Below, piece by piece: positions 35,855 through 52,366 of a DNA stretch of 64,000 bases. A program made the translations under genes and the position numbers. How positions within the stretch are numbered: position 1 is the stretch's first letter; each line of letters opens with the position of its first letter. The notes beneath the pieces were generated by a model, which did not search any database, was not told where the DNA came from, and saw only the letters and a list, made by a program, of their open reading frames with translations. The stretch comes from Sulfurimonas sp. (GTDB lineage: Bacteria; Campylobacterota; Campylobacteria; Campylobacterales; Sulfurimonadaceae). The DNA lies in the NCBI GenBank assembly GCA_041595535.1, contig JBFHKA010000002.1, forward strand, positions 20,263-84,262, in the 5' to 3' direction.

Positions 35855-36688
35855 TTAGAGAGTAGTTCCTTGAAGCTTACACTTAAGTGGTAAGCCTTTT
35901 TGAGAATTCCAAGCTATGAATGCCCAAGTAAAAGGTTTTGGATAAGCATTTTTATTTTCTATAAATAGTTCATGATACTCTCTTGCCTTTTGCTGTTGTT
36001 CTTCATTAAGTTCACCTAGACTCCAAATGAGAGACGTTACGAATTCATCTGCACTAGTACTTTTTATGCTTCCTTTTTGTGTAGCTATATAGTCTAGTTG
36101 TGGAAGATAGCCATTTTTATAGAGTAAGATAGGAATATACCAGAAGTCAGGTTTTGCAATAATCTTCTTCCCAATATAGTCTAAGATTTCCATATCAACA
36201 AAACTTCCCCCAGCTTTGTATGTAATATAACACGCTCTTTGAACACGTTCATTCATTTTAGCGAGAGCTTTGTTTATATCTTGTACTTCTACACTACGAG
36301 ATGCTACTGCAATATCTACAAGAGGTAATTCGCTCCAATCATCATCCCAACCTATATGATAGGTTTGTATATTTGTCACACCCTCTTTCGCAGCATAAAT
36401 CTCAAGCTCTTTTAACATTTGTAATGAAAAGTCTATAGCTATAACTTGTTTTACTCTTTTTGCAAGAGGTATTGCAAGTGTTCCAGGTCCACAACCTATA
36501 TCTAAGACAACTTCATCACCTGCAATATCCATACGTGAAATAAACTCTTCAACATAAGAGGAATTTTGCATTGAGACTGCCATCTCTTTAGATTTATCAT
36601 CCCAGTCACTACTACTTTTACCTTTAAAAATTGTGCTTTGTTTATGCTCTTTATACATTTGAGCAAAGTCTATTGGTTCTAAAAACAT
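35855..36688 (-). CDS. Class I SAM-dependent methyltransferase (HI1273/Yc73-like)
   Basis: VLDIGCGPGTLAIPLAKR, IAIDFSLQML, DIAVASRS. Confidence 0.88.
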   Translation of the reverse strand: MFLEPIDFAQMYKEHKQSTIFKGKSSSDWDDKSKEMAVSMQNSSYVEEFISRMDIAGDEVVLDIGCGPGTLAIPLAKRVKQVIAIDFSLQMLKELEIYAAKEGVTNIQTYHIGWDDDWSELPLVDIAVASRSVEVQDINKALAKMNERVQRACYITYKAGGSFVDMEILDYIGKKIIAKPDFWYIPILLYKNGYLPQLDYIATQKGSIKSTSADEFVTSLIWSLGELNEEQQQKAREYHELFIENKNAYPKPFTWAFIAWNSQKGLPLKCKLQGTTL

Positions 36689-36703
36689 TTTTTTCCTTTA
36701 TAG

Positions 36704-37183
36704 TTAATTACGCTCTAACTGCGTTCTTATATGATATTCAATAACTATTGCAATAATCTTCAAAGCATCCGAAGCATTTTGCTCTGAAATTTTTTGGAAA
36801 TTATCTTCAATATTTTGAACATCTATCTTTTGATCTTTTAAAAATAGTACTACACTCTCTGTTTCAAAGTTAAAATTATTACATAGCTCTACTAAACTCC
36901 TATATTTTAAAGTTTTAATTAGCTTATAGTTTCTAGCACTATAATCTAGTTCTTGAAAAAACATAAAACCATACAACTCTAAAAACATTTTTTTAAGCTT
37001 TTCTTTTCTGAGATAGATATGCATAGGCAAAATAATCAGAAAAATTACTCCAACACTTTTATGCAAAAAAAGCATACCCTGATTAGATGTTCCACTGATA
37101 AAGTAGGCACTGCCTCCCAATGCAAAAATAAATAGAATCATAAAAAAAATGATTACAAGCCTTAAAAAAACATCATTTTGCAT
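36704..37183 (-). CDS. DUF4405-like two-TM protein with paired His
   Basis: Start moved to ATG37183 (TAATG coupling); LHKSVGVIFLIILPMHIYL. Confidence 0.65.
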   Translation of the reverse strand: MQNDVFLRLVIIFFMILFIFALGGSAYFISGTSNQGMLFLHKSVGVIFLIILPMHIYLRKEKLKKMFLELYGFMFFQELDYSARNYKLIKTLKYRSLVELCNNFNFETESVVLFLKDQKIDVQNIEDNFQKISEQNASDALKIIAIVIEYHIRTQLERN

Positions 37184-37398
37184 TACACAGATGCTCCCAT
37201 ACACACAAAACTATCGGCAGTCCATCGACGGTAGAGACAGTTATAACAAGAATCTTGTTCGGTAGATGTAACAAGCTCATCTTCATCATTATCAAGTTTA
37301 AACTGCATACATCTTCTTGTAGCTATTATTGCCCTTATATAATCTATTTTTCCATATTTAAATAAAGATGTACCACTTTTATTTTCAAACAATTTCAT
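37183..37398 (-). CDS. Small 4-Cys hypothetical protein (71 aa)
   Basis: C30, C51-x2-C54, C66; embedded in the operon with a 3-nt gap upstream and TAATG coupling downstream. Confidence 0.7.
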   Translation of the reverse strand: MKLFENKSGTSLFKYGKIDYIRAIIATRRCMQFKLDNDEDELVTSTEQDSCYNCLYRRWTADSFVCMGASV

Positions 37399-37401
37399 AT
37401 T

Positions 37402-38133
37402 TTAATACTCTAATAAATATTCTTTGAGCAGAGGTACATAAAAACCTTCATACTCTTCAACAAGTAAGACAGATTTATGATTTAAGTAAACACCTTTTAA
37501 GTATTTATTCATAACTATCAAATAATTATCGCTTGCCATGTCTCCACCATTTACACGTACTTCATCAAATAAACCTAAACTTAAAAGTTCTGCAATAGAT
37601 ATCGTTTGTTGATGAAGTATAACTTTACCTTTTATACGTCCATCACTTCCGTGCATTCGTAGTGCAAGGCCAGCTAATGCTCCCACAACACCTGAACCTT
37701 CATTTCTTAACTCAGTTAAAAAAAGATTTTGCTCTTTTGCCATTAAGTAAGCACTCTCTTTAGTTAAGACTTTTTGTTTTGCATCCAGTCCATATTCAAT
37801 TAACTTCTCTTTGTCACATACATCCTCTTCAAACCCAATACAGATGCCTGGAGCGGATGAAGAAGCACTCCTCATCATCACATAGTCCATAACATACATT
37901 TTTATATCTTCAAGCTCATCTCGACTAAGCTCTGTTGTAAAACACATCGAACTATTGTGAGAGGTGTAGGGAATATCTTCGTGAAGAAGAAGTTGATGTC
38001 TCGTTATTGGTGTTGTTGGAGCATAATGCAATACTATATGCTCCCTAATCTCTTCACATATCTCACCCGTTGATGTGTAATAGCCTATCTCATCGGTATC
38101 ATCTATGGCTATATATGCCTTAAACTTTTGCAT
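37402..38133 (-). CDS. Stand-alone TiaS-like (DDTD motif) protein
   Basis: YIAIDDTD, TRHQLL...IPYTSHNSSMC, GSGVVGALAG; resembles the N-terminal modules of agmatidine synthetase TiaS without its OB and Zn-ribbon domains. Confidence 0.7.
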   Translation of the reverse strand: MQKFKAYIAIDDTDEIGYYTSTGEICEEIREHIVLHYAPTTPITRHQLLLHEDIPYTSHNSSMCFTTELSRDELEDIKMYVMDYVMMRSASSSAPGICIGFEEDVCDKEKLIEYGLDAKQKVLTKESAYLMAKEQNLFLTELRNEGSGVVGALAGLALRMHGSDGRIKGKVILHQQTISIAELLSLGLFDEVRVNGGDMASDNYLIVMNKYLKGVYLNHKSVLLVEEYEGFYVPLLKEYLLEY

Positions 38134-38136
38134 TGT

Positions 38137-40107
38137 CTAAAATTTATACTCTAAAGAGGCAAAGAACTCTCTTCCTGCCATTGGATAAGCCATATCGTAG
38201 CGAACAAGCTCATCTGTAAGATTTTTTACACCTACTTCTGCAGTAAGCTCTTTCATTGGTTGGTAAATTGCTTTTACATCAAAAGTTGTAAAATCTGGAT
38301 TTGTTACATAGGTTCCATCTAACTTCTGTTCATAAGCACCGCTACGAAATTTCATATTTGCATAGAGAGAGAAACCTGCTCCAATCGCCTCTTTTGCAAA
38401 TACAAAGAGTTGCTGTTTTGGTACGTCTACAAGTTTGATGCTACTATCTTGCGTATTTTTGATAGATATATAAGCATAGTTTCCTCCTGCAGTTAAATTC
38501 TCACCTCTATAGTTAAGCTCTAACTCCCCTCCAATATGCTCAAAACTTCCAACATTTTGGTTTTGTTTGTAAGCTGGGTCTGGAGCATAAACAACACTCT
38601 GTATTGCATCATCAACTACTGTATAGTAAGCATTTAACCCGCCAGAAAATGCATTGTATTGTTTTTGATAACTTAACTCGTAGTGTGTTGCAATCTCATT
38701 TTCTAAGTCAACATTTGGAACAGATGAGTTGAGTTTACGAGAGTATCTATCTTTCATAGAAGGCATATATGTCTTTCTTGAGATACTCGCTCTTACTTTA
38801 GAACTATTGTCTGGCGAAAATATAAGGGCAGCTTGTGGAGAGAGTGAGCTCTCTGTAGCAAGACTCAACATATCTAAGTAGGCTGTATTTGTATCATAAA
38901 TTTTATCTGCTGTTCTTTGGTCATAACTTGCACCAACTAAAAGCTCAAACTGAGATGAGATTGTGTAACTATCTTCCAAACCTACAGAGATTGTATGGTC
39001 TTCATACTGTTCCGTCATAGTTTCTGCATCGCTCGTTTTACTTATATCATATCCTCTGTGAACATCTTTTTTATAATTTAAACTAGCTTTTAAGAAGTTA
39101 TCACCTAAGCCTAAGCCATACTCAAGACGAGTACCATAGCTGTAGTCATCATATCTACTCTTAAATGCCCAATTCTTACTTATAGTTGTAAACGTGTTGT
39201 TATCGTAAGAGTAGAGTGAATTTTTGCTTACGTCATAATACGCTAATGCTTTTATATAACTATTTTCAAAGTTCTTTTGACCTACGAGTGAGATAGTCTC
39301 TTTATCCCAATAAGGCCAATCCCAATTTTTATCTTTTGCATAGCTTGTATCAGTAACTGGAGGCTGCTGTTTTACAGCTTTTTGATTAAGGTAAGAGATT
39401 GCTATTTCACTCTTATCATTAGCCACATATCCAGCTTTAAAGCTTACTTTTTTATCTTCAGATTTAGAACGAAGTCTTTCTCCTTTTGGTTGAGTTGGTG
39501 TAGCTTCATATTTATCGCTCATTGTAAAATGGTCTTGTTTGCTATAAACAGCGCCAAGTTGTGCATAGAAATTTTTTTGGCGTGTACCAGCATTTATATT
39601 TTCTCTATGACTAGCCATTTTTCCATCTGAATCAAAAATAATTTGGGCTTTAATATTTCCCTCGAGCTCTTTAGTAGGTTTTTTAGAAACTATATTGACA
39701 ACACCGCCCATTGTATTACCTCCATATACAACAGATGAGTACCCTTTTGAGACATCTATCTCAGCTGTATCTGCTGTTAAAAAACGCCCATAGTCAAAGT
39801 TTCCATCATACGGAACATAGACAGGAATACCATCCATAAAAACACCAATTCTTTTTGAGTCAAATCCACGAATATAAATAGTTGACTCTCCACGTCCACC
39901 TTGTACGTCTTGATTTACACCGCTTACATTGTCTAATGCTTGCGCTACAGTCTCTGATGTATGAAGTGAAATCGCTTCTGCAGTTACATCCTCTTCAAAT
40001 ACTTTTATCTCTTGTGTTTGTGCTTGAACATTTACTTCCCCAAGTTCAAAAGAATCTGCTAAAAGCATACTCGTTGCAAGTGATAATAAAATAAATTTTT
40101 TGTTCAT
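38137..40107 (-). CDS. TonB-dependent receptor (PrrA-like)
   Basis: TonB box ELGEVNVQA; plug IRGFDSKRIGVFMDGIPVYVPYDG; GGNTMGGVVNIVSK; KNLTDE; C-terminal LEYKF. Confidence 0.95.
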   Translation of the reverse strand: MNKKFILLSLATSMLLADSFELGEVNVQAQTQEIKVFEEDVTAEAISLHTSETVAQALDNVSGVNQDVQGGRGESTIYIRGFDSKRIGVFMDGIPVYVPYDGNFDYGRFLTADTAEIDVSKGYSSVVYGGNTMGGVVNIVSKKPTKELEGNIKAQIIFDSDGKMASHRENINAGTRQKNFYAQLGAVYSKQDHFTMSDKYEATPTQPKGERLRSKSEDKKVSFKAGYVANDKSEIAISYLNQKAVKQQPPVTDTSYAKDKNWDWPYWDKETISLVGQKNFENSYIKALAYYDVSKNSLYSYDNNTFTTISKNWAFKSRYDDYSYGTRLEYGLGLGDNFLKASLNYKKDVHRGYDISKTSDAETMTEQYEDHTISVGLEDSYTISSQFELLVGASYDQRTADKIYDTNTAYLDMLSLATESSLSPQAALIFSPDNSSKVRASISRKTYMPSMKDRYSRKLNSSVPNVDLENEIATHYELSYQKQYNAFSGGLNAYYTVVDDAIQSVVYAPDPAYKQNQNVGSFEHIGGELELNYRGENLTAGGNYAYISIKNTQDSSIKLVDVPKQQLFVFAKEAIGAGFSLYANMKFRSGAYEQKLDGTYVTNPDFTTFDVKAIYQPMKELTAEVGVKNLTDELVRYDMAYPMAGREFFASLEYKF

Positions 40108-40116
40108 TTTTTTCCT

Positions 40117-41085
40117 TTAAATTTTTGGTCTAATATCTTCGCTAAATATTTTTAGCATTTTTCTTGTCACTCTTGGATCTGTAGATGCAGGTTTGAGTAT
40201 GAGATGTAAATTTTTGATTCTCTTTTCCATCTCTAGAATTTTATCTATTGACTCTTCTACAGTTCCCAAAAGTGCTGCATTCATAAACTTCTTCGCATCA
40301 AAAAACTCATATCTCTGATTGAGCAAGAGTGTGTAATTCTCCTGATTAAATTCAGGTTGCGTTCCACCTGAGTTGAGTGAACGCATAGACTTCACAAAAT
40401 GGTCTGTAGCTATTACAGCAGCGTTATAAGCTTTTTCATAACTCTGAGCTACATAAAAGACTCGCATTAATACTATTTCTGGATCAAATCCTGCAATATT
40501 TTTATAAACCCTGCAAGCATTCTCACATTCCTCAATTGTTGCCCCCTGCGAAAACATAAGCCCAAACCCATTGTTTGCGGCAAACTCAATAGTCTCTTGT
40601 GTGGAGAATGTAGCCATATATATAGGTATCGTATTTTGTAATGGTTTTGGATGGAGTGCTTTATTATGAGAGAGTGCTCTATTTATAATGTGTACATTCT
40701 CAAAGAGTTCACTACGAAGTTCCTGTGGAGTTTTAGAAAAATACTCCATATCAAGAGTAAAACCACCTTTTGCAAAACCTGCATTTATCCTCCCGTTTGA
40801 GAGATTATCGAGTGTAGCTATCTCTTCAGCTAGACGTGTAGGATGATAAAAAGGTGCTAAAAAAGCAGCACTCCCAATGCGGATTTTACTTGTTTTTGCA
40901 GCAGTGTATGCCATCATTAAAGAAGGGTTTGGAATAACACTGAAAGAGTTAAAATGGTGCTCTGCGAACCAAACTTCATCAAACCCAAGTTCCTCTGCAT
41001 AACATGCCAAATCTATATCATTTAAAATCGTTACGTGCGAATTTGCATGAAAATTTTCTGTAAGTAAAAAAATACCTGTTTTCAT
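40117..41085 (-). CDS. LLM class (luciferase-like) flavin-dependent oxidoreductase
   Basis: AEELGFDEVWFAEHHF, AAKTSKIRIGS, HPTRLAEEIATLDNLSNGRINAGF. Confidence 0.92.
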   Translation of the reverse strand: MKTGIFLLTENFHANSHVTILNDIDLACYAEELGFDEVWFAEHHFNSFSVIPNPSLMMAYTAAKTSKIRIGSAAFLAPFYHPTRLAEEIATLDNLSNGRINAGFAKGGFTLDMEYFSKTPQELRSELFENVHIINRALSHNKALHPKPLQNTIPIYMATFSTQETIEFAANNGFGLMFSQGATIEECENACRVYKNIAGFDPEIVLMRVFYVAQSYEKAYNAAVIATDHFVKSMRSLNSGGTQPEFNQENYTLLLNQRYEFFDAKKFMNAALLGTVEESIDKILEMEKRIKNLHLILKPASTDPRVTRKMLKIFSEDIRPKI

Positions 41086-41684
41086 TAACTTTTATCTCTT
41101 AATAACTCTTTTTTTACTTCACTCCATGGATAACGTTTTATGGCATCCATATTTGTACGACGATTTATCATGCGTATTGAAAGTGGCTCTATCCAATTCC
41201 AAAACTCTTCAAGATGCTCATGAGGAAAATTTATGTCTTTGAGTGTTTTTTTATATATAGCTATCCAAATATCTCTGTCATTTTCATCTATTGGAACTTT
41301 GAAATGACGCATTCTTAGATGAGGTTCACCATGTTGTGAAGTAAAAATTTCCTCACCTCCAAGTGCCTCAACAAAAAAGTCTGCACTTTTATCAACAGCC
41401 ATTTTAAATGCCTCTTCATTAGCAGGGAAAAGTTTTCCTACCTTTGTTTTTTTAAGTAGTTCATGTTGATGCCAAACCATCTCACGAATTTTTTCTTCAC
41501 CGAGGGCTTTAAATATTTTGTTTGACGGAAATGGGACAGGTGGATAGATAATATCTATCATAGAGTCTACCGTTCTAATCTCATCCGCGCCAAAGCGAGG
41601 TCTATTTGGTTGCGCTTGCATACTACCTAGTTGTGTAAACGAAGTTATTTTGCCATTGTGGCAACTATTTTGATTTGTATCCAT
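41085..41684 (-). CDS. Truncated hemoglobin (group II-like) with N-terminal extension
   Basis: Start moved to ATG41684 (AAAGGA RBS); LGGEEIF...HGEPHLRMRH (F8 His), DRDIW (G8 Trp). Confidence 0.88.
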   Translation of the reverse strand: MDTNQNSCHNGKITSFTQLGSMQAQPNRPRFGADEIRTVDSMIDIIYPPVPFPSNKIFKALGEEKIREMVWHQHELLKKTKVGKLFPANEEAFKMAVDKSADFFVEALGGEEIFTSQHGEPHLRMRHFKVPIDENDRDIWIAIYKKTLKDINFPHEHLEEFWNWIEPLSIRMINRRTNMDAIKRYPWSEVKKELLRDKS

Positions 41685-41697: not shown

Positions 41698-42345
41698 TTA
41701 TTTTGTAATGTAAACCCAAAATCCACTTTCATCATCAATAATAGTAAACTCACTTGGTCGAAGAGAATTAAAAATTATAGGTAAGGCTTCTCTTTCTGGT
41801 TTGATTCTATCTTTAAATGATTTTCTCCACTCTGGATTATTCTCTCTCATAGTTTGAACAATTTTTTCACGTAACTCTGCATTACCAAACCCTCCACCGA
41901 TGTATGCTTTACCACCGACTTTTAATACTCTGAGTATCTCACGGTATGCTTGATGCCAATCATCCCAGAACGGGGAAGAACCACGACTAATAACTAAGTC
42001 GATGGTGTCATTTTCAATCTCTATGTTATGAATATCTCCTTGCACGAAACCACTACGATGATATATGTGATCTTCTTTTGCATACTCTCTTGCAAATTCA
42101 AGCATCTCATCAGATTGATCAAAAAATGTCATATGCAAATCTGTAATTTTTGCCAATGATCTTCCTAAGGCTCCAGTACCACATCCAGCATCAAGGCATC
42201 TTCCACTTGTAATTTTTGTTTTTTCTATGATTTGTTCTGCTATCACAGGATAAATAGGAGCAAAAATCTCACGAACAATTTTGTCAAACCCTTGTGGGTT
42301 TGATCCGCCTCTATAGTGTTTTTTTATTTCCATATCTCTACTCAT
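41698..42345 (-). CDS. Class I SAM-dependent methyltransferase
   Basis: IFAPIYPVIAEQI, CLDAGCGTG, FDQSDEML, GDIHNI, DLVISRGS, RVLKVGG; start at 42345 gives proper RBS spacing. Confidence 0.9.
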   Translation of the reverse strand: MSRDMEIKKHYRGGSNPQGFDKIVREIFAPIYPVIAEQIIEKTKITSGRCLDAGCGTGALGRSLAKITDLHMTFFDQSDEMLEFAREYAKEDHIYHRSGFVQGDIHNIEIENDTIDLVISRGSSPFWDDWHQAYREILRVLKVGGKAYIGGGFGNAELREKIVQTMRENNPEWRKSFKDRIKPEREALPIIFNSLRPSEFTIIDDESGFWVYITK

Positions 42346-42359
42346 TGTTATCATCTCCT

Positions 42360-43403
42360 TTATAAGTTTACGTTAACACTCTCTAGTATCTCATCAAGAT
42401 TTTCTTGTGTTAAATCTACATTTAAAAAAAGTTTATAGAAACTTTTTGTCTCTTTTTGAATATCAATCTTGTACACTTCTGGGTAAAGGTTGTGCATGAC
42501 CCACTTTAGTCCTAAAATACGCATAAATGAAGGGGGTCTATCAAACCAATTAAATGGAGCTTTTGGAATTAAAAAAACTTTTTTATTTTTTACTGCTTTT
42601 ATTTCTTTCCATAATTTCATATCATAGATTTTGTCGTAAAACATCTTCTCTTGAACAAATATAACATCTGGATTGTATTGGAGTATAGTCTCCATAGATA
42701 ACTTTTCAAAACCTTTATGGCTTGAAGTATGGCATCTATGAATATCTACATCACCTGCTAATTTAAGAAGCTCGACATGAATGGAATCATCACACTCTGT
42801 ACTTAGTCCATCTGTTCCCTCAGCATAATACACAGTAGGCCTCTTCTCTTGTGGTACTTTTGCAACGGCATTTTTTACTTCATCAAAAGTATTTTTTGTA
42901 TACTCAGAGAGTCTATCACCACGCTCTTGTTTATTTAAAGCAACTCCTAAGAATTTAAAAATACCAACATAATCTAGAATGGATTCATCACAAGCATATA
43001 CAAATGGCGTACTGAGTATGTGTAATCTCTCTTGCTCTTTTTGTGTAAACTCATTGATGTGTGACCACATAAGAATTAAATCAGGGCGTTTTGAAAGCAA
43101 AACCTCAAGGTTTGCTGATTGTCCAGCTCCAAAAACTCTTCCTATAACAGGGAGTGTCTGCATTCTTTTGTCCAAAAAAGGATAATACTTACTGTCAATG
43201 TTAAATATCCACCCAACAAGAACAGAAGGATCCATGGCATAAAGAGCATAAGAACCATACGGTGAGGGAGCATAAACTTTTTTTGGTTGTTCTGGCACAA
43301 CTACCTTGCGTCCTAACATATCTACAATTTCTCTGGCTTGGAGAGAAGCTAAGAATAAAGAGCTAAGTAACAAGGTAAAAATAAATTTTTGAAGCTGTTT
43401 CAT
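42360..43403 (-). CDS. ABC transporter periplasmic binding protein (FhuD/BtuF-like class III)
   Basis: IVDMLGRKVVVP, NLEVLLSKRPDLI, ETILQYNPDVI, AVKNKKVF, FDRPPS. Confidence 0.92.
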   Translation of the reverse strand: MKQLQKFIFTLLLSSLFLASLQAREIVDMLGRKVVVPEQPKKVYAPSPYGSYALYAMDPSVLVGWIFNIDSKYYPFLDKRMQTLPVIGRVFGAGQSANLEVLLSKRPDLILMWSHINEFTQKEQERLHILSTPFVYACDESILDYVGIFKFLGVALNKQERGDRLSEYTKNTFDEVKNAVAKVPQEKRPTVYYAEGTDGLSTECDDSIHVELLKLAGDVDIHRCHTSSHKGFEKLSMETILQYNPDVIFVQEKMFYDKIYDMKLWKEIKAVKNKKVFLIPKAPFNWFDRPPSFMRILGLKWVMHNLYPEVYKIDIQKETKSFYKLFLNVDLTQENLDEILESVNVNL

Positions 43404-43412: not shown

Positions 43413-45467
43413 CTAAAAATTCATACTAATTTCGACACCAAGTGTTCTTCCACGGTCGTAGTAGTATCCAGTTGTATATCTTGTCGCATATTTATCATTT
43501 GTTAAGTTTCTTCCATAAATTTTCCCAGTAATGATGTTGCTTTTCCATTTAAAATCTTTTGCTGCATTTGCATCAATTCTTGTATAATTTCCAAGGGTAA
43601 CACCCGATGATGTTCCCATGGCACTTGAAGAACTAGAGTAAGCATCAACTCTTTTTGCAGAGGCATTAAAACGGTAATCTTCCCAAGTGTGACTTATGAG
43701 TGCGGAGTAGCTATTTTCAGGTGTGGATACACCTACACTATCAGAAGATGTAGTACTATTAGATGTCTCATTAAGAAGCATACGTGTCCATGAAAACTTA
43801 TAAGTTGTGCTTCTTTTAATAGTTCCATTGATACTTAACTCAACACCTTGTCTATGCGAATTTTGTTCTGTATAGTAGTAGTACTCATTTCCTTGGTCAT
43901 CTGTATATGTTTTATCATCAATGGCAGTTTTTTCATTCTCTATATCAACATCAAAGTAAGTTATCATAGGCACAAAAACTTTGTCAAAGTCTGCTTTTAA
44001 ACCTACTTCCCAACGATTTTGCTTTTCAGCATGAAGTGTTTCATTGTTTTCTGTCATCAGGTCAAAATCACCTGATACTCCTTCATCTCCATAGTAATAA
44101 CGTGCACTTAAACTATATGTATTTGTCATATTCCATAGTGCACCAACTGCAATAACATTAGCGGGAGACAAATCTATATTATTGTTTGCATTTGGTTTTG
44201 ATAATGCCTCATTTTTTGCTTTTGTTGAATCTTTTATATGTTTATAATCAAGTCTATACCCTGCATCAAGAACAAGCGATTCATCAAAAAGAGATTGCTC
44301 TAATGAAATTGCATACCCCATCACAGAAGTGTCATATTTGTTATATCCTTTTGAGAGATTTGGTCCAAAACCTTTACTGTGTGTCATCTGTCCACCAAGG
44401 TTAATAAGTGTATTTCCAAAACGTGCTTTATGTCGTAAACTATATGTCTGTGTTGATTCTGTATACTCTTTTTGTGCATGAGAAGTGTTTGCAAAGTTAT
44501 CATTAATCTCTGTTTGTTCATACATTATTGAAGATGCTGAGAAGAGTGTAACTTGATTTTCACTCCAAATAATATTTCCATCCATAGAGAGTACAGTAGT
44601 TATAATAGGGTCATAAAACCACTTTGCATTATCAACAGTTCCGTCTGTTTTTACTCCCCTTTGCATCTCAAATCTACCTCTATCTTTATAAGCCATAGTA
44701 TTGATTGTTATAGGACCATAGTTCAAACCTGCGTTTATCATTCCAGCTTGGGCACTACTTCCATCAAACCAATCTTCTCTACTTGGTCGGTTATAACGTG
44801 AGACCATCCCTCCAACATATCCATTGAGAGAATTAGCACTTCCAAATGTTGCTCCCATATAGAGATCTTCTCCATCAGCTCCTGGTTGTGCATCTGCTTG
44901 CTCATAATAGGCTCTTAGCATCCCTCCAGTTTTTTTAGGATGTTTTGTTCTAATGATGATATAACCTATTGATGTTCCGCCACCACTATTAGATGCTCCA
45001 ATATCTATAGCAGGTGCTATCGTTATTGCTGTAGATGTACGAACAATCTGTATCTCCTCAATAGCTACAAGAGGAAGTGTTGTAAGAATACGATCGCTAG
45101 TTGAAGGTAAAATAGCTCCATCTAAAATATAAGTAATACTTCCTCCTCCTCGCATATTGATAAAATAAGGGTGTTTACGTCCTTGATATGTTACGTCCAT
45201 TCCTATTGCTTTATTCATCAAGTCAAAAAAGTCTTTTGCTTGGTATGCTTCTATCTCTTTTTCATCCATAACCTCAGTTCCAAACTGTGCACTCTTTTCT
45301 ATCTGATAAAGATTTGTAGGACTTGATAGTTCAAGATCTTCCCTTGGTGCGACTGTTGTTTCATTTACGTTAATCTCTTCTAAATTTTTTGTCTCCTCTG
45401 CTGACAAATTAGAAGCTACTGACACTATTAGCAAAAGTGCTAAATATCCTAAAACCTTTTTTTTCAT
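43413..45467 (-). CDS. TonB-dependent receptor
   Basis: Signal peptide, LEEINV box, plug NMRGGGSITYILDG, GRNLTNDKY, C-terminal EISMNF. Confidence 0.92.
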   Translation of the reverse strand: MKKKVLGYLALLLIVSVASNLSAEETKNLEEINVNETTVAPREDLELSSPTNLYQIEKSAQFGTEVMDEKEIEAYQAKDFFDLMNKAIGMDVTYQGRKHPYFINMRGGGSITYILDGAILPSTSDRILTTLPLVAIEEIQIVRTSTAITIAPAIDIGASNSGGGTSIGYIIIRTKHPKKTGGMLRAYYEQADAQPGADGEDLYMGATFGSANSLNGYVGGMVSRYNRPSREDWFDGSSAQAGMINAGLNYGPITINTMAYKDRGRFEMQRGVKTDGTVDNAKWFYDPIITTVLSMDGNIIWSENQVTLFSASSIMYEQTEINDNFANTSHAQKEYTESTQTYSLRHKARFGNTLINLGGQMTHSKGFGPNLSKGYNKYDTSVMGYAISLEQSLFDESLVLDAGYRLDYKHIKDSTKAKNEALSKPNANNNIDLSPANVIAVGALWNMTNTYSLSARYYYGDEGVSGDFDLMTENNETLHAEKQNRWEVGLKADFDKVFVPMITYFDVDIENEKTAIDDKTYTDDQGNEYYYYTEQNSHRQGVELSINGTIKRSTTYKFSWTRMLLNETSNSTTSSDSVGVSTPENSYSALISHTWEDYRFNASAKRVDAYSSSSSAMGTSSGVTLGNYTRIDANAAKDFKWKSNIITGKIYGRNLTNDKYATRYTTGYYYDRGRTLGVEISMNF

Positions 45468-45485
45468 CTCTCTTCCTTGTATTTT

Positions 45486-45496
45486 TTATGACATAA
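45486..45496. promoter_or_regulatory. Palindromic operator candidate TTATG-A-CATAA
   Basis: Perfect 5-1-5 palindrome between a minus-strand TATAGT -10 (45513-45518) and the RBS of the receptor gene; related sites at 52484-52494 and 52528-52546. Confidence 0.55.
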
Positions 45497-45546
45497 CGAT
45501 TACTTAATTAGTACTATACTCTTTCTAACACATTTGCTCACTCCCC

Positions 45547-46521
45547 TTATTGCTCTAAATAATTAAAGAAAATCTTCTCAAAGTTTTGTAACTCTTTCTT
45601 AGAAGATAGTGGCAACAACTCAGGGTAAAACGTATGAATCAGCCAACGTATTCCCATTAAACGCATAAAAGATGGTGGTCTTGTTATGTAATTAAATGGA
45701 ACGGATGGAACCAAATAAACTTGTTTACTCTTCACCGCACGTAACCCAGTAAACTTTGGATTTTCATAAATTCCATCATAAAAACTCTTCTCCATTACAA
45801 CAAGAACATCAGGATCACTTAAAACAATGTTTTCAAATGAAATTTTTTCCATTCCATAGTTTGAACTCATTTTACAATCCAGTGCATTTTTAGCACCGCT
45901 ATATGTAAAAGGTTCTAAATGAAAAGAGCCACTACATTCACTACTCATTCCATCTACACCCTCCGCAAAATAGTAACGTACTGGTTGCATCTTAGAGAGT
46001 TTACTTTGTAGAGAATCTATAAGTGTAAGTGTCTCTTGCGTGTATGCTATAAGCTCTTTAGCTCGCGTTGTATCACCTGTAAGTTTTGCATAGAGTTCAA
46101 ACTGTGTAATCAAATCACTTATTGAATCATTTCTGATTAATAACACAGGAATGTTTAACATCTCAAATTTTTTGAGCACTTTTTCATACCCATTCATGCG
46201 TCCCCACATCAAGATAACATCTGGTTTTGAAGCTGCTAAAAGTTCAAAGTTTGGAGTTTTGCCTTGTCCAAAAAAACCACCAGCAACAGGCTTCTCGTAT
46301 GCAACTCCAGCATAGGGCTTTTGTTCGGGAGTAAATGGTGTATTTAGAGCACTGAGTAGTGCTGGATTAAATGCCAATACACTCATACTTATAGGGGGTG
46401 AAGCCGCATAAATTTTTGTAACTTTATCTGGAACTTCAACACTTCTTCCATAATCATCTACAATGACTTTTGCCTGCGTTTGCGTTAAAAAGAAAAATAA
46501 TACCAACAGAAATATTTTCAT
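45547..46521 (-). CDS. ABC transporter periplasmic binding protein (class III)
   Basis: IVDDYGRSVEVP, PNFELLAASKPDVI, SFENIVLSDPDVL, AVKSKQVY, ITRPPS. Confidence 0.92.
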   Translation of the reverse strand: MKIFLLVLFFFLTQTQAKVIVDDYGRSVEVPDKVTKIYAASPPISMSVLAFNPALLSALNTPFTPEQKPYAGVAYEKPVAGGFFGQGKTPNFELLAASKPDVILMWGRMNGYEKVLKKFEMLNIPVLLIRNDSISDLITQFELYAKLTGDTTRAKELIAYTQETLTLIDSLQSKLSKMQPVRYYFAEGVDGMSSECSGSFHLEPFTYSGAKNALDCKMSSNYGMEKISFENIVLSDPDVLVVMEKSFYDGIYENPKFTGLRAVKSKQVYLVPSVPFNYITRPPSFMRLMGIRWLIHTFYPELLPLSSKKELQNFEKIFFNYLEQ

Positions 46522-47306
46522 TAGACTCTACCTTTTAGTACTGGAATACACCACTGCTTAGAGTTGTGCTCAATAATATTTGCATTGATGCCATAAATAC
46601 CTTGCATCATATCTGACGTTATAACTTCATCACTTGTTCCATTTGCGATGATTGTTCCCTCATCCATTACCACAACACGACTAGAAACTAAAATAGCATG
46701 GTCTGGATAATGCGTAGTCTTTAAAAAGGTGTAACCCTTTGCACTCAATTCATTAATCATCTCTAAAAGACGTATTTGATTGCCATAATCAAGACCTGAG
46801 ACTGGCTCATCCATAATAAAAGTATTTGTCTCCTGTGTGAGTGCACGTGCAAGTAAAACCATCTGCTTTTGTCCACCACTAAGTTCTCCAAAAGCTCTCT
46901 TTGCAAGCGACTCTATACCAATAGTCTTAAGTGCTTCATAAGCAAGTTCAAAATCCTTTTTGGAAGGAGAAGAAAAGAGACCAAGCTTAAATACACGCCC
47001 CATTACAACCATATCTAAAACACTATAGTTAAAAGGGACATTATGATATTGTGGAATATATGCAATATGTGCAGCTATCTCTTTTTGGGAGTAATCTTTT
47101 AAGTTTTTATCTCCAAGTTTTATCTCCCCTTCTCCTTTTAAAAGACCTAATATAATACGAATCATTGTACTTTTTCCACAGCCATTTGCACCGAGTAAAC
47201 TTACTACTTCACCCTTGTGCAAATCAAAATCAACTCCACGGAGTACATCTCTTTTTGGGTAAGAAAAATGAAGATTTTTTACCGAGATAATTGGTTTTAA
47301 TTCCAT
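46521..47306 (-). CDS. ABC transporter ATP-binding protein (FepC/FecE-like)
   Basis: True start ATG47306 (MELKPII); GANGCGKS, LSGGQKQ, IMDEP, TTHYPDH. Confidence 0.93.
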   Translation of the reverse strand: MELKPIISVKNLHFSYPKRDVLRGVDFDLHKGEVVSLLGANGCGKSTMIRIILGLLKGEGEIKLGDKNLKDYSQKEIAAHIAYIPQYHNVPFNYSVLDMVVMGRVFKLGLFSSPSKKDFELAYEALKTIGIESLAKRAFGELSGGQKQMVLLARALTQETNTFIMDEPVSGLDYGNQIRLLEMINELSAKGYTFLKTTHYPDHAILVSSRVVVMDEGTIIANGTSDEVITSDMMQGIYGINANIIEHNSKQWCIPVLKGRV

Positions 47307-48325
47307 GCTGCCCTCGCATTTTTGAGTACAATTATAAAAATTGGAATCCCTATTATAGATGTGAGTATTCCTATTGGTATCTCGACACTCAAAGCAAGTC
47401 TTGACACAGAATCTGCTAGAAGTAAAAAAAGTGCACCTAAAATTGCAGAAAGCGGTATCAAAGTACGGTGTGAGGGTCCTATTGCCATACGTATAATGTG
47501 CGGTATAATAAGACCAATCCAACCAATAATACCTGCCATAACAACAGAGAGTGAACTTGCAATAGTCGCTAGAAGAATTGCTATAATTCTTACTGCTTTT
47601 ACATTGATACCAAGTGCTTTTGCCTCTTCATCTCCAAGACTTAAAATATCAAAATATTTGCTCATTAAAATCATAGTAGCAATACTTAGAATCATAGGTA
47701 TACTAATAAGTAAAACGCCATTTAACTCAGCCATAGAGAGACTTCCCATCAACCAGTAAACAATTGCAGGAAGTGTGCTGTATGGATCTGCCACATATTT
47801 TATAATAGATAAAAAAGATGTAAAAAGCGAACCACTAATAACGCCACCAAGGACAAGCATCACACTCGAACGAGAGTTTGTAACCATAGAACCGATAGCA
47901 ACAGAGAGTGCAACTGCAATAAAACCAAAACTAAAAGCTAAGATTTGTACTACAAACCACTGCTCACTTATAAGCATTCCAAGTGCAGCTCCAAAAGAAG
48001 CCCCAGCCAAAACACCTAAAATACCCGGAGATACAAGTGGATTTACAAACATTGCTTGAAATACAGCTCCAGAAGTAGCCAAAGAAGCTCCAATTAATAT
48101 CGCCAACAAAACTCTAGGAAGACGAATCTCTAAGATGATATTGTCTAAGAGATCAAACTGAGATACATCTCCAGCTGTACTCCCTAAAATCTTATACTCT
48201 ATATAATTCATAAATGTACTAAAGTCTATGGGGTATTGCCCCCATAAAAGCGATAGAGTTGCAAAAATGAGTAAGATGAGAAAGGAAATACCTATCCATC
48301 TGCTACTACTACTTATATATTGCAT
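47297..48325 (-). CDS. FecCD/BtuC family ABC permease
   Basis: IRLPRVLLA, QAMFVNPLVSPGILGVLAGA, LSLGDEEAKALG, IGWIGLIIPHI, EIPIGILTS. Confidence 0.96.
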   Translation of the reverse strand: MQYISSSSRWIGISFLILLIFATLSLLWGQYPIDFSTFMNYIEYKILGSTAGDVSQFDLLDNIILEIRLPRVLLAILIGASLATSGAVFQAMFVNPLVSPGILGVLAGASFGAALGMLISEQWFVVQILAFSFGFIAVALSVAIGSMVTNSRSSVMLVLGGVISGSLFTSFLSIIKYVADPYSTLPAIVYWLMGSLSMAELNGVLLISIPMILSIATMILMSKYFDILSLGDEEAKALGINVKAVRIIAILLATIASSLSVVMAGIIGWIGLIIPHIIRMAIGPSHRTLIPLSAILGALFLLLADSVSRLALSVEIPIGILTSIIGIPIFIIVLKNARAAWN

Positions 48326-48333
48326 CTTTTACC

Positions 48334-50568
48334 TTAGTACTTTAAATTTAGACTTGCATATACACCAAATGGGGCACCTGTTTGGTACGTACTTGAAGTT
48401 CCATTTGCTGCGAGTGCATTATCTGCTGAGATAATAGTTGCTATGTATTTTTCGTTTGTTAAGTTTGTAGCTGTCACCCTAAAGAGTGAATCTTTTGAAC
48501 CAAAAAACGTTTTTAATTTATACGAGACGTCTAAATCTACTAAAGTATATGCATCTATTTTCTGTGTATTTGCAACATCCCCATATCTACTTGAGCTATA
48601 TCTAGTACTCGGCGTAAATGTCCATCTATCTACATAGTATGAGAGTGCCCCTTTTGCCATAAACTCTGGTGCATCAGGAAGCTGATTTCCTTTTATGGAT
48701 GTAGAGCTTGTTGGTGAAGACTTAAAGTCTTGTGTAAAACTATACTTGTTGTAAGAGAGTCCTAAAAGAAATTCTAAACTTTCAGTTATAGCTCCATTTG
48801 CTGCAAACTCTGCTCCATATCCTAAAGCTTCTCCAACATTCGCTGGATAATTCACACCATACGTTGGGTCATAAATATTTGCTTGTTTATTATTTACAAA
48901 TGATACAAAGAAACTTGGATTGAGTGTAATCGCACCTACATCTGTTTTAAATCCTAAATCAATATTATCGGATGTTTCAAGCTCTAATTCATCCCATAAA
49001 GTTTGAAGCTTAACACCTTTAGCTACAAAGGCTGCTCTGTTTGAAGCATACGTTGGAAAGAGATTTACATCAAATCCATACGTACGAGAGTAATCTAAGT
49101 AGATAGAAGAACTTGTATCTAAATCATACGCTAAGTACAAAGAAGGTAAAAAAGTATTAAAAGTTCTTGCGTCTACACTTGCCCAGCTGTCTAGTGTTGA
49201 AGTTGCTATTGCAACATCATGATCTTGACTTGTTGCAGCAGTTGTACCTATGTAGCTTTTAATAGATCCAATAGTAAAGGTTTGGTACTGTAATCCTGCA
49301 GCATAGTGAAAACTGCTCATATCACCACTAAGTTCCACAAAAGGAGCCTGCAATACATGATAATCTGTATCTGCTAAAATTCCATATCCTGCGTATTGTA
49401 AATTTCCACTTGCATTTACTTTGTATTTTTTTTGATCATTTGGAGGTCCAGGAGGGAGTTGTTTATGGTACCAGTACCCGATTTTACTTTTTAACTCTTG
49501 TGAAAATGTATGTTCATACGCTGCCACACCACCATATAAATCATGTTCCATATGCCAATTTATGACAACATTTTTTGCAGTATTAGAGAACCAATAATCC
49601 CCTTCATCTTTTTTATAGTAAGGCTTTAACGTGACTGTATCGTTTGAAGTAGGTTTAAAGGCTATGTCAGCCATAAACGCTGTAGTGTCAAAATTTTGTT
49701 TGTTCCAATCATAGTAGTTTGTGTCATTTGCACTTGTAGGTTTTGTTGATGCATAATCTTTATCAAAATATCTTCCAAGGTCTGTAGCTTCTGCATAACT
49801 CAAACTTGCATAGTTATGGTGCTTGTCTTTATTTCTTACTGCATAGATGTCTGCTTTAAAACTATTGTTAGGTTCATAAGAGAGTCCAACCATTCCATTT
49901 GCTCTTTTAAGATCTCCCTCGCCTTTTGTTTTATCACTCTGAATGTATGAGAGAGAACCAAAAGCACTAAAATCACTAACTTTTCCACTATCAACACGTA
50001 CAAATGTTTTTCTAAATGCATCACTACCAACAGACTGAGAGATATTTATGCCAAGTTTTTTCTTTGGTTTTAAAACATTCATATCGATTTTTCCAATTAA
50101 ACTTGAAAAACCTAAGTTTTTATCGACACCTATGTACCCTTTATGTAAATCAATAGAAGCGACATTTTCCATATCAAGCATCTGTTTTCCACCACCAGGA
50201 TTACTTGATATTGGCATACCATTTATCATGTACACTCCACCAGGACCAGACTGACTTTTTCCACGAATACGTATTGGGTCATGGTACGAAGGTTCATTAG
50301 AACCAGCCTGATCGACTGGAGTAAAATTCACCGATGGTGAAAACTGAATAACCGTATACGGGTTCATATTTGCCTGTGTACTTAGTGTAGCTATACTCTT
50401 TTGTGTATAACTTTGGCTATTTTGTTTTGCGGATGTGTTGCTATCACTTACTAGCATCTGTCCATCATCTTGCATAGTTGAATTGACTACGATTTTTTCT
50501 ACACTCAGTGGTGTAGCCATCAGTGCAGTTGCTGCGACTAAAGATAACATTGTAAACGTAACTCTCAT
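48334..50568 (-). CDS. TonB-dependent receptor
   Basis: VEKIVV box; plug IRIRG...YMINGMPIS; GNQLPDAP; ATNLTNEKY; C-terminal SLNLKY. Confidence 0.93.
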   Translation of the reverse strand: MRVTFTMLSLVAATALMATPLSVEKIVVNSTMQDDGQMLVSDSNTSAKQNSQSYTQKSIATLSTQANMNPYTVIQFSPSVNFTPVDQAGSNEPSYHDPIRIRGKSQSGPGGVYMINGMPISSNPGGGKQMLDMENVASIDLHKGYIGVDKNLGFSSLIGKIDMNVLKPKKKLGINISQSVGSDAFRKTFVRVDSGKVSDFSAFGSLSYIQSDKTKGEGDLKRANGMVGLSYEPNNSFKADIYAVRNKDKHHNYASLSYAEATDLGRYFDKDYASTKPTSANDTNYYDWNKQNFDTTAFMADIAFKPTSNDTVTLKPYYKKDEGDYWFSNTAKNVVINWHMEHDLYGGVAAYEHTFSQELKSKIGYWYHKQLPPGPPNDQKKYKVNASGNLQYAGYGILADTDYHVLQAPFVELSGDMSSFHYAAGLQYQTFTIGSIKSYIGTTAATSQDHDVAIATSTLDSWASVDARTFNTFLPSLYLAYDLDTSSSIYLDYSRTYGFDVNLFPTYASNRAAFVAKGVKLQTLWDELELETSDNIDLGFKTDVGAITLNPSFFVSFVNNKQANIYDPTYGVNYPANVGEALGYGAEFAANGAITESLEFLLGLSYNKYSFTQDFKSSPTSSTSIKGNQLPDAPEFMAKGALSYYVDRWTFTPSTRYSSSRYGDVANTQKIDAYTLVDLDVSYKLKTFFGSKDSLFRVTATNLTNEKYIATIISADNALAANGTSSTYQTGAPFGVYASLNLKY

Positions 50569-51587
50569 TACTCATCTCCTAAAATTGTTTTAACTTGCTT
50601 GTCTGTTATTTTTACATTAAAAAAGAGTGCATAAAACTCTTTTATCTGTTTGTTCAGGTCTATTTTGTACTCATTTGGATGAAAGATATTTGCTAACCAT
50701 TGAATCCCAATAATTCTCATAAAAGATGGTGGTCTATCAATCCAGTTAAAGGGTGCATTGGGTACAAGATATACTTTTTTGTTTTTTACTGCACGTAGAT
50801 GGGCAAAAAGGTCATCATAAAGAATCTGATTGTATGTAAAACTATTTTGAGCAATGATGACATCTGGGTCATACGTCAAAAGCGTTTCAAAGTTAATCTT
50901 CTCTAAACCTAGAAGCTGACTCTGTTGGCACTTATGTACGTTCTCGCCACCTGCAAAATTGAGTGCTTCGATGTGAAAAGATTGGTCACACTCTGTAGAT
51001 AAACCATCAACGCCTTCTGCGTAGTAGTAACGTACAGGCTTTGTTTTTGCGAGAGATATTTGTATCTCTTCTATGATATTTTTAGCATAAGAAGACAAAA
51101 GTAAACCTCTTCCATGCTCATTCATAGCATTTGCCGCAACACTAATTGCTTTTGGCATATCTTCTATTTTTCTAAAAGGAATGGAAAGTGTTGGCAAGTG
51201 TGTTTTTTGTATAGATTTATTTACAGTAGCCATCATCATGTCATCTTCCCAAACAAAAATTAAGTCTGGTTTTTTTGCCATAAGGATTTCAAGATTTATA
51301 TTTTTTCCTCCCCCATGAAAAGAGCCAATAACGGGAAGTGAAAGAAATCGTTTATCCAAAAACTCTGGGGTTGCAAAATTATTACTATTTTTTGCACTAA
51401 AGTTTAAACCAATAAGTTTATCTGGATTGATTGCATATATAAGATACGTCATTGGTGGGGAAGAACCAAAGACAGTCTCAACTTTATCAGGCACAGTGAC
51501 CTCATCTGCATAAAAATTCTGGATGCTTCTTGCATCAAGATTGCTTAGGAGGACGAATATGACAAGTAAATGAAGTAAAAAATTCAT
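50568..51587 (-). CDS. ABC transporter periplasmic binding protein (class III)
   Basis: INLEILMAKKPDLI, NFETLLTYDPDVI, AVKNKKVY, IDRPPS. Confidence 0.92.
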   Translation of the reverse strand: MNFLLHLLVIFVLLSNLDARSIQNFYADEVTVPDKVETVFGSSPPMTYLIYAINPDKLIGLNFSAKNSNNFATPEFLDKRFLSLPVIGSFHGGGKNINLEILMAKKPDLIFVWEDDMMMATVNKSIQKTHLPTLSIPFRKIEDMPKAISVAANAMNEHGRGLLLSSYAKNIIEEIQISLAKTKPVRYYYAEGVDGLSTECDQSFHIEALNFAGGENVHKCQQSQLLGLEKINFETLLTYDPDVIIAQNSFTYNQILYDDLFAHLRAVKNKKVYLVPNAPFNWIDRPPSFMRIIGIQWLANIFHPNEYKIDLNKQIKEFYALFFNVKITDKQVKTILGDE

Positions 51588-51598
51588 TTTAAATTTCC

Positions 51599-52366
51599 TT
51601 AGGATTGTTGTAGTGAAAAAGAGATGGGAATCTTCAAATCAACTTTTTTACTCAATTGTGGGTACTCTCCATCTAGCAATGAAACTGTCTGAAGAGCTCT
51701 TTTATCTAGTGCAGAACTACCGCTACTCTCAAGTATACATACGCTCTCTACATGTCCATCTGCAGAGAGCGAGAATGAAATAAGTACAACACCCTCTAAT
51801 TTTAGTTTTCTAGCAATTGCTGGATAACGTAGTGAGTTTTGTATTAAGGTTCTTATGCGTGCTAATTCTTCATTACTTACCTCTGTGGTCCGTGTATGCG
51901 TCTGAGGTAAGTTAGAATCAGCCAAAGGAGAATTAACGCTAGGAGCTTCTGGTTGTGCAATTTCTTGTTGCGTAACGGGCTCTGCTTTTTGTATAGGAGG
52001 CGTAAACGCCTCAGAAGGAACAACAGGTTCTGGTTGCACTTTCTCAGGAGTCTTTTCTTTTGGTACTTCTTTTACTACTTTTTTTTGAGGTTTAACTACT
52101 TTTTTTGTTTTCTTTACTTTTTTTACAGGTTTTGGAGTAGGTTTGGTAGGCTCTTTGAGCGCTTGCATTGTAGGTGCATAACTCGCTAAAGAGACAACTA
52201 TAGTTTTACTCTCTTGTGGCATATGAACAAACTCATTACTTGCATAATGAATGAGCGTTGCAAAAAGAGCAGCGTGAATAAAAAGAGAGGCAAAAAATGC
52301 CTTTGTTTTCAAAAAAGAGTCACTGTGTATCTTTTTAGATACAACGATACTACCTAAAGAATTCAT
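51599..52366 (-). CDS. tonB: Energy transducer TonB
   Basis: TM SLFIHAAL (SxxxH), Lys/Pro-rich linker, YPAIARKLKLEGVVLISF, SSGSSALDKRAL; start ATG52366 6 nt after GAGGGG. Confidence 0.92.
   Translation of the reverse strand: MNSLGSIVVSKKIHSDSFLKTKAFFASLFIHAALFATLIHYASNEFVHMPQESKTIVVSLASYAPTMQALKEPTKPTPKPVKKVKKTKKVVKPQKKVVKEVPKEKTPEKVQPEPVVPSEAFTPPIQKAEPVTQQEIAQPEAPSVNSPLADSNLPQTHTRTTEVSNEELARIRTLIQNSLRYPAIARKLKLEGVVLISFSLSADGHVESVCILESSGSSALDKRALQTVSLLDGEYPQLSKKVDLKIPISFSLQQS

Follow-up and report, generated by a model that had tools for sequence, protein, structure and literature searches.

What does a bacterium take up through three dissimilar outer-membrane receptors that feed a single inner-membrane transporter? 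This question is raised by a 16-gene locus at positions 35855-52366 of the window, a 64,000-nucleotide (nt) stretch of DNA (C2:20263-84262) from a 2.62-megabase (Mb), 78-contig Sulfurimonadaceae-type genome. The locus encodes TonB, three TonB-dependent receptors, three binding proteins for one ATP-binding cassette (ABC) transporter and a set of putative enzymes, and the nearest homologues of the window proteins are in Sulfurimonas metagenome-assembled genomes (MAGs). We consider it likely that the locus serves molybdenum and tungsten (Mo/W), an assignment based on three independent lines of evidence: ModE-type operators, Moco/Tuco (molybdenum/tungsten cofactor) riboswitches and Mo/W gene neighbours. 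On balance, these and the homologies of the importer favour a ModE-controlled, TonB-dependent acquisition system of the MolBC-A type, not one for iron or haem.

Gene content and the importer

A first interpretation made from the letters alone (the sequence-only reading) had described 16 genes in two tightly packed minus-strand units. Pfam and NCBIfam searches confirmed this layout, finding each gene with its expected domains. Neighbouring genes within each unit are spaced by -22 to +15 nt, and the sole real intergenic gap in the cluster is 45468-45546. The gene content, the homologies, the conserved linkage and the regulatory elements described below are present in the sequence. The genes are as follows.

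Unit 1
51599-52366, minus strand: TonB (PF03544, E = 4e-17; TIGR01352)
50568-51587, minus strand: binding protein 1, class III, MolA/4PAG clade (PF01497)
48334-50568, minus strand: TonB-dependent receptor 1 (PF00593, E = 1e-32)
47297-48325, minus strand: MolB-type FecCD permease (PF01032, E = 8e-81)
46521-47306, minus strand: MolC-type ABC ATPase (PF00005)
45547-46521, minus strand: binding protein 2, MolA/4PAG clade (PDB 4PAG match)

Unit 2
43413-45467, minus strand: TonB-dependent receptor 2 (plug domain, E = 2e-7; TIGR01783, E = 1e-19)
42360-43403, minus strand: binding protein 3, MolA/4PAG clade (PDB 4PAG match)
41698-42354, minus strand: class I S-adenosylmethionine (SAM) methyltransferase 1 (PF13649, E = 9e-20)
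41085-41684, minus strand: truncated globin with an N-terminal extension (PF01152, E = 8e-14; PDB 4NK1, E = 5e-48)
40117-41085, minus strand: luciferase-like flavin monooxygenase (PF00296, E = 1e-44)
38137-40107, minus strand: TonB-dependent receptor 3, PrrA-like (plug and barrel domains)
37402-38133, minus strand: stand-alone TiaS-like TCKD protein, 243 amino acids (aa) (profile and fold match)
37183-37398, minus strand: 71-aa miniprotein, Cys4 (four invariant Cys)
36704-37204, minus strand: two-transmembrane (2-TM) protein with a cytoplasmic tail (weak cytochrome b561/DUF4405 likeness; PF01292, E = 3e-3)
35855-36688, minus strand: class I SAM methyltransferase 2, Yc73-like (PF13649)

The ABC ATPase starts at the ATG at 47306, which has a GAGGG ribosome-binding site, and not with the long TTG open reading frame from 47522. 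The TonB start is most likely the ATG at 52366, and the start of the monooxygenase gene overlaps the globin stop.

The importer resembles MolBC-A. The top PDB match of the permease was HI1471, the MolB of Haemophilus influenzae (E = 7e-60), ten orders of magnitude ahead of the next, FhuB (E = 6e-50), with HmuU and BtuC also well behind; the ATPase is 38% identical to Escherichia coli ECs_1697. All three binding proteins matched 4PAG first and then 4OVK and MolA (HI_1472), with binders of haem, B12, nickel and siderophores lower among the matches listed. E values for binding proteins 1, 2 and 3 were 7e-79, 6e-54 and 2e-73 against 4PAG, and 4e-15, 6e-7 and 3e-15 against MolA, so that the three stand much nearer to 4PAG, an uncharacterised structural-genomics protein, than to MolA itself. 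A literature search for 4PAG or 4NK1 found no paper. By homology, the permease, ATPase and binding proteins are thus those expected of a type II importer of the MolBC-A family, which imports molybdate and tungstate and whose molB transcript is repressed by molybdate via an unidentified factor (PMC4031551; reviewed in PMC4245157).

The sequence-only reading had also called the binding proteins paralogous and the receptors dissimilar. Both descriptions hold: the binding proteins share 36-43% mutual identity, and the receptors show no cross-match at E < 1e-10. Two further receptor clusters lie elsewhere in the genome. At C1:70029-74399 a second cluster encodes a receptor (31% identical to receptor 1), a binding protein and a luciferase-like monooxygenase (34% identical to that of the window); it has no permease of its own and presumably relies on that of the window. 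At C48:227-9537 an operon combines four large lipoprotein-like genes with that of a receptor sharing 27% identity with receptor 3.

Operators, riboswitches and gene neighbours

The genome encodes a full-length ModE (C34:945-1208; TIGR00637, 103.6 bits against a cut-off of 98.5), followed by Mop domains, and a modA-mop-modD-modB-modC operon, with ModD at C13:56652-57494. The modA promoter contains a palindrome, CGTTGTGTA-N6-TATATAACG, with two mismatches to the E. coli ModE consensus CGnTATATA-N6-TATATAnCG (PMC545781). When the 2.6-Mb genome was scanned with a local pattern, CGTTATRT-N8-AYATAACG, allowing up to two mismatches, five sites were found: the modA promoter, the promoters P1 and P2 of the two units of the locus, and the promoters of the C1 cluster and the C48 operon. 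The elements in the window are the following.

52405..52428, no strand assigned: putative ModE-type operator, proximal in P1 (CATTATATC-N6-AACATAATG; 9-6-9 layout as in the modA operator)
52526..52548, no strand assigned: ModE-like palindrome, distal in P1 (CATTATGTTTTAAAAACATAACG; 23-nt spacing variant, one mismatch)
45475..45498, no strand assigned: putative ModE-type operator in P2, overlapping the ribosome-binding site of receptor 2

The proximal P1 box overlaps a TATAAT -10 box upstream of tonB. The C1 cluster carries CATTATATC-N6-GATACAACG 54 nt upstream, and the C48 operon has a box of the same type, CGTTATATC-N6-GACATAACA, in a divergent promoter. From these boxes and the encoded ModE we infer ModE binding; the substrate and every enzymatic step discussed below are likewise deduced from homology and context.

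In relatives the box is retained in the corresponding promoters, where it precedes receptor 2, the first binding protein and a globin gene next to mop; the receptor 2 orthologues of two loci (L006 and L012) have it 21-23 nt upstream. Scanning the relatives' loci gave 18 matches, 14 of them intergenic and one a perfect palindrome, compared with 8 in a reversed control. In Glaesserella, three boxes with at most three mismatches lie in the corresponding promoters, and in the E. coli O157 operon ECs_1699-1693 a ModE box without any mismatch, CGCTATATATTTACATATATATCG, lies 25 nt upstream of the first gene. The Sulfuricurvum globin orthologue lies outside the main operon and adjoins mop (L011 17521-18130; L012 about 16044-16684). 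It has its own ModE-type box, in L011 a perfect palindrome that fits the local consensus perfectly, which suggests that the globin is a Mo/W-regulated gene in its own right. A conserved ModE-like palindrome beginning CGTTATATCAT (two mismatches) also occurs inside the monooxygenase coding region of two relatives (L008 7301 and L010 7416), about 560 nt upstream of receptor 3, and may be an internal operator or a chance match.

More distant loci were collected by their TiaS-like gene: 80 loci encoding it were fetched, joined to 4 fetched earlier and compared with the window proteins. An Rfam scan of 14 distant loci found a Moco/Tuco riboswitch (RF01055) in five. Four of these directly precede an operon for a surface protein, FecCD permease, ABC ATPase, binding protein, TiaS-like protein and Cys4 miniprotein, and the fifth precedes an operon for a receptor and a transporter of the energy-coupling factor (ECF) type. 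A custom model built from the five Rfam-confirmed copies identified 29 copies in 23 of the 80 loci (E at most 2e-10), 28 of them on the operon strand and some in tandem triplets. One copy that was aligned to the Rfam model lacks the P3 stem, and the other 28 are equally short (115-121 nt); a P3-less Moco/Tuco class is associated with the tungsten cofactor (Regulski et al., PMC2408646). One locus (L037 2274-2806) has three copies in the roughly 500 nt upstream of its transporter region, and one of the three is in the opposite orientation; another (L046 5790, 12681 and 17686) has three that are spread out, of which one precedes the transporter and another a molybdopterin-oxidoreductase gene. The triple copies resemble an arrangement reportedly found in Syntrophomonas wolfei. 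The window itself contains no riboswitch.

Gene neighbours point to the same metals. In Arcobacteraceae the system directly follows moeA, tupA, tupB, an ABC ATPase gene and, in most cases, wtpA; in Sulfuricurvum, modD, a mop-like gene, modB and modC come straight after methyltransferase 2; in Glaesserella, modD stands behind the mol genes; and mop is present in several loci. At least one Mo/W marker, riboswitch or gene, lay within 10 kilobases (kb) in 40 of the 80 loci, by rough estimate a large excess over the roughly 5% expected per random 20-kb stretch of this genome. The sequence-only reading had left iron, molybdenum, tungsten, nickel, cobalt and B12 as candidates; operators, riboswitches and tup, wtp, mod, moeA and mop neighbours together narrow this list to Mo/W.

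The conserved core and the TiaS-like/Cys4 pair

Which parts of the locus belong together elsewhere was judged from the genes found within 10 kb of the TiaS-like gene in the 84 loci. An ABC ATPase was present in 72, a MolA-like binding protein in 69, a Cys-rich miniprotein in 68 (almost always overlapping the TiaS-like gene and immediately 3' of it) and a FecCD permease in 66. A receptor 3 homologue occurred in 40 and methyltransferase 2 in 18, followed by the monooxygenase (8), the 2-TM protein (7), TonB, receptor 2 and receptor 1 (5 each, the last as orthologues in related loci) and methyltransferase 1 and the globin (4 each). These counts define a near-universal unit of importer, TiaS-like protein and Cys4, and the latter two are the only cytoplasmic components kept across phyla. 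The proposal of a coherent uptake system is therefore upheld, and enzymes do co-occur with the transporters in other genomes, but the 16 genes are not one conserved unit, as the add-ons are found in only 4-8 of the 84 loci.

Around this unit the surface components vary. The PrrA-like receptor is an addition of Gram-negatives, and Firmicutes have Big_5 surface proteins in place of receptors, some with S-layer homology domains or beside a sortase gene. The Yc73-like methyltransferase is added in Campylobacter, Glaesserella, Sulfurimonas and some deltaproteobacteria. Sulfurimonadaceae relatives and a single Arcobacteraceae locus repeat the order monooxygenase, receptor 3, TiaS-like, Cys4, 2-TM, methyltransferase 2, apart from small gaps or insertions, and they alone have methyltransferase 1, the globin, the monooxygenase and receptors 1 and 2; the monooxygenase gene is directly upstream of receptor 3 in L008-L012 and L019. 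In four loci (L045, L075, L077 and L081), from Ferrimonas, Desulfuromonadales and a related deltaproteobacterial MAG, an ECF-type transporter substitutes for the FecCD system while receptor 3 and the TiaS-like protein are retained. This transporter consists of a fused double ATPase, a CbiQ-like T component and a small membrane protein, 184-208 aa long and unclassified. In Clostridium magnum, ABC ATPases and a CbiQ-like component adjoin the TiaS-like/Cys4 pair; L064, where an ECF-type transporter likewise stands in for the FecCD/binding-protein importer, has two ABC ATPase genes and a CbiQ-like component beside that pair.

The 243-aa TiaS-like protein belongs to a family of 2,349 homologues, nearly all of them unnamed ('hypothetical' or misnamed ThiG). 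Its likeness to TiaS, the archaeal tRNA-Ile2 agmatidine synthetase, had been noticed in the sequence-only reading and was borne out by both sequence and structure. A profile of the family found TiaS in the PDB (E = 7e-8), and an AlphaFold model (pLDDT 91.6) matched only TiaS structures in Foldseek (E = 6e-10 to 1e-5), with 3amu/3amt best (6e-10). IDDTD, RHQL, YTSHNS and GALAG are invariant in the family, and its IDDTD, PY..N and GxGxIGALA motifs align with TiaS. The alignment covers about 158 columns, and the C-terminal 70 aa form a small beta domain. Like TiaS, the protein has the TCKD kinase fold with the DDTD, PY..N and G.GxIGALA motifs; unlike TiaS, it is bacterial, is encoded in Mo/W transport operons and has none of the FLD, OB and zinc-ribbon tRNA-binding domains. 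Judged by sequence and predicted fold, it is a TCKD-fold enzyme and not a TiaS, and a tRNA substrate is unlikely. Two other identities were rejected, methanogenesis marker 11 for the whole protein (TIGR03280, 33.7 bits against a cut-off of 255.8) and a Mop/TOBE molybdate-binding domain for its C-terminal beta domain (hhalign probability 0.1). A literature search found no paper that ties TiaS-like proteins to molybdenum.

In the miniprotein, the four cysteines noted at first sight proved invariant (C30, C51, C54 and C66; C-x20-CxxC-x11-C). They lie in a motif C-x2-F-x2-D-x-[DE]3 ... SCYNCxYRRW ... C that includes an acidic DxDEDE stretch.

The remaining proteins gave fainter signals. The methyltransferases have weak ArsM/TehB-like and CpaM-like matches. 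For the 2-TM protein, which was scored as conserved in 14 of the 80 loci, the suggested DUF4405 likeness was found, but it is weak (E about 2e-3) and comes from a homologue only. An MbnH-family di-haem enzyme (TIGR04039, E = 3.5e-80) occurs in several relatives (L008 11452-12899, L011 12069-13052, L023 and L024), and the window lacks it. Both L008 and L011 pair it with a 159-aa protein that has no Pfam match, and there the enzyme gene lies downstream of the 2-TM gene, in L011 preceding methyltransferase 2; in Campylobacter an MbnH-family gene is flanked by the TiaS-like gene and a second methyltransferase 2-like gene.

The locus is patchily distributed, with the TiaS-like gene in 3 of 81 sampled genomes of the family and in none of 7 other genomes of the genus. 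When same-genus genomes were compared for the insertion site they were too divergent, and synteny downstream of tamB was not found. A MutS homologue with a C-terminal extension (weak DUF968 match) is encoded in the window at 32132-35173.

The imported species and related systems

How might such a system work? At low cellular molybdate or tungstate, ModE would leave the P1 and P2 operators and both units would be transcribed. The three outer-membrane receptors, energised by the TonB of the locus, would each take up Mo/W species; each adjoins a MolA-like binding protein of its own, and the three binding proteins would deliver to the one MolB/MolC-like permease/ATPase. In the cytoplasm the TiaS-like kinase-fold protein and Cys4 would carry out an ATP-dependent step on the imported species, from which Mo/W would pass to cofactor synthesis. 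The Yc73-like methyltransferase, the monooxygenase/globin and methyltransferase 1 would be accessory processing enzymes, all but the first of them lineage-specific.

The imported Mo/W may be bound to an organic or thio ligand, which we favour over a bare oxyanion for four reasons: dedicated surface capture proteins occur in both Gram types; an ECF-type transporter replaces the inner-membrane transporter in some loci; the cytoplasmic pair is near-obligate, and bare-oxyanion importers do not need one; and linkage of the monooxygenase to receptor and binding-protein genes recurs, the ModE-boxed C1 cluster being one case. We tentatively suggest that the TiaS-like/Cys4 pair processes such a complex in the cytoplasm and that the monooxygenase/globin and the methyltransferases are accessory enzymes for handling the ligand. 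More speculatively, the pair might represent an unrecognised, widespread cytoplasmic step of Mo/W acquisition, in which metal is released or activated, at the cost of ATP, from a complex that has entered by way of the outer-membrane receptors or the surface proteins of Gram-positives, while the monooxygenase/globin destroy the ligand.

Several observations weigh against this scheme. The window boxes mismatch the E. coli consensus at 5 of 16 specified positions, and a genome scan with that consensus alone (up to four mismatches) misses them, its best site being modA; its matches in the genome are not enriched over a reversed-pattern control. The number of sites found with the local pattern is not above chance (2-10 in shuffles), and the pattern was derived in part from the window boxes themselves, so that the weight of the operator evidence rests on the positions and conservation of the boxes. 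The AlphaFold model of Cys4 is poor (pLDDT 62). Because the genome encodes ModABC as well, molybdenum supply does not depend on the system, and since neither TupA nor an AOR-type tungstoenzyme is encoded, a role in tungsten supply is unsupported in this host. A TiaS-like gene is missing from the homologous cluster of E. coli and, judging by the published list of loci (PMC3928620), from that of H. influenzae; MolBC-type transport can therefore do without the pair. Finally, MolA binds bare molybdate and tungstate oxyanions (PMC4031551), and an organic ligand is therefore not required.

This last point is also the starting point of the alternative that survives best, which we rate as unlikely but deserving of serious weight. 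It keeps the same Mo/W regulon and takes the substrate to be bare molybdate or tungstate, or a third oxyanion such as vanadate, with the receptors concentrating nanomolar oxyanions. The monooxygenase, globin and methyltransferases would then leave the substrate untouched, serving instead as Mo-sparing substitutes or to detoxify oxyanions imported alongside it; the TiaS-like/Cys4 pair would accept metal in the cytoplasm or act there as a regulator. The weak ArsM/TehB-like matches of the methyltransferases and the rarity of the add-on enzymes among the 84 loci are consistent with this, and metal regulons often include cofactor-independent substitutes (PMC545781). However, ModABC and TupABC need no cytoplasmic partner, yet the pair accompanies the importer in 66-72 of the 84 loci, and neither the dedicated surface proteins of Firmicutes nor the recurrent tie between the monooxygenase and receptor and binding-protein genes is readily accommodated. 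The same holds for the loci in which an ECF transporter takes the place of FecCD, as we know of no transporter of this type for oxyanions.

Salvage of an organic Mo/W-related cofactor or precursor, for instance a Moco/Tuco fragment that is of pterin type or has been released from protein, with the TiaS-like protein, ModD and the methyltransferase acting in recycling, appears improbable. Cofactors (B12, haem, vitamins) are the typical cargo of type II ABC and ECF importers, the chemistry of TiaS activates a pyrimidine ring carbonyl, and ModD has a phosphoribosyltransferase fold; cofactor-sensing riboswitches and the linkage of ModD in Glaesserella, E. coli and Sulfuricurvum would also fit. The documented ligands of MolA, however, are oxyanions, and the loci contain no conserved pterin-handling gene. 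Moco is, moreover, very labile, and no bacterial Moco uptake is known to us.

A classical iron, haem or siderophore uptake locus is what database annotation would suggest, as homologues are labelled FecCD, 'haem/haemoglobin receptor' or 'ferric enterobactin ATPase', and the E. coli homologue has been called a possible iron uptake system (PMC12928451, PMC1890555). Receptor 3 and the ATPase do find the haem/haemoglobin receptor family and a haem ABC ATPase as their top family matches, but at 143.5 bits against a cut-off of 316.85 (TIGR01785) and 191 against 261 bits. P1 and P2 have putative operators of the ModE type and no Fur box (best match in P1, 6 of 19 or 4 of 15 mismatches; P2 worse), and Moco/Tuco riboswitches and Mo/W neighbours accompany the distant homologues, near which no iron markers were noticed. 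We therefore regard this explanation as very improbable. Least probable of all is nickel, cobalt or corrinoid uptake of the NiuBDE or BtuCDF kind: weak matches of the binding proteins to BtuF and, at E = 1e-5 to 1e-7, to CeuE/NikZ structures that bind nickel, the CpaM-like matches of the methyltransferases and the CbiQ-like component of the ECF variants hint at it, but the scores are far below those for MolA/4PAG, P1 and P2 have no NikR box, and Rfam found no cobalamin riboswitch in the window or the 14 scanned loci. Haem, iron, nickel and B12 identities were all rejected, with family scores far under the cut-offs.

The Mo/W acquisition system that we favour is not wholly undescribed, as had first been thought, because its core importer belongs to the described MolBC-A family. 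It resembles MolBC-A (HI1470/HI1471/HI1472) in its permease, for which that system gives the best solved match, and in its class III, MolA-related binding proteins; MolBC-A transcription is metal-repressed, and the system coexists with ModABC and is modD-linked in relatives. It differs in having three binding proteins per permease, three receptors and its own TonB, and in adding the TiaS-like/Cys4 pair, two methyltransferases, a monooxygenase and a globin. ModABC, TupABC and WtpABC appear to share the regulon (ModE boxes, Moco/Tuco riboswitches) and are often encoded beside systems of the window type, but they are type I importers with class II binding proteins and have neither an outer-membrane receptor nor cytoplasmic partners.

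A resemblance with E. coli O157 Sakai's prrA-modD-yc73-fepC cluster (ECs_1693-1699), which had been suggested for receptor 3 and methyltransferase 2, was substantiated: receptor 3 is 28% identical to ECs_1693 (E = 3e-61) and methyltransferase 2 is 30% identical to ECs_1696 (E = 5e-41), alongside 38% for the ATPase, 42% for the permease and 24-26% for the binding proteins. A ModE-type box, putative in the window, lies upstream of both clusters. In E. coli (L089, NC_002695: 1688010-1694485) the order is binding protein, FecD, ATPase, methyltransferase, ModD, receptor, with a single receptor and binding protein and without TiaS-like, Cys4, monooxygenase or globin genes. The window, by contrast, has no modD; that of the host sits with modABC on another contig. 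A DNA-level search with the Glaesserella cluster against E. coli genomes gave no match.

MolBC-A is a textbook structural model of type II ABC importers, and its physiological role has been described only as 'low-affinity molybdate uptake'. Our comparison indicates that members of the family are usually accompanied by surface receptors and by an unstudied, conserved pair of enzyme and miniprotein, and that the family is probably under ModE or Moco/Tuco riboswitch control in Campylobacterota, Gammaproteobacteria, Desulfobacterota-type lineages and Firmicutes. This points to a missing part of Mo/W homeostasis, namely capture at the cell surface and the fate of the metal just after import, and gives the bacterial TiaS-like family a testable context. 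The island prrA-modD-yc73-fepC, found in pathogenic E. coli and repeatedly classed as an iron system, is probably a member of the molybdenum regulon. If the TiaS-like/Cys4 pair does perform the proposed release step, the system would be the first defined uptake pathway of a 'molybdophore/tungstophore' type.

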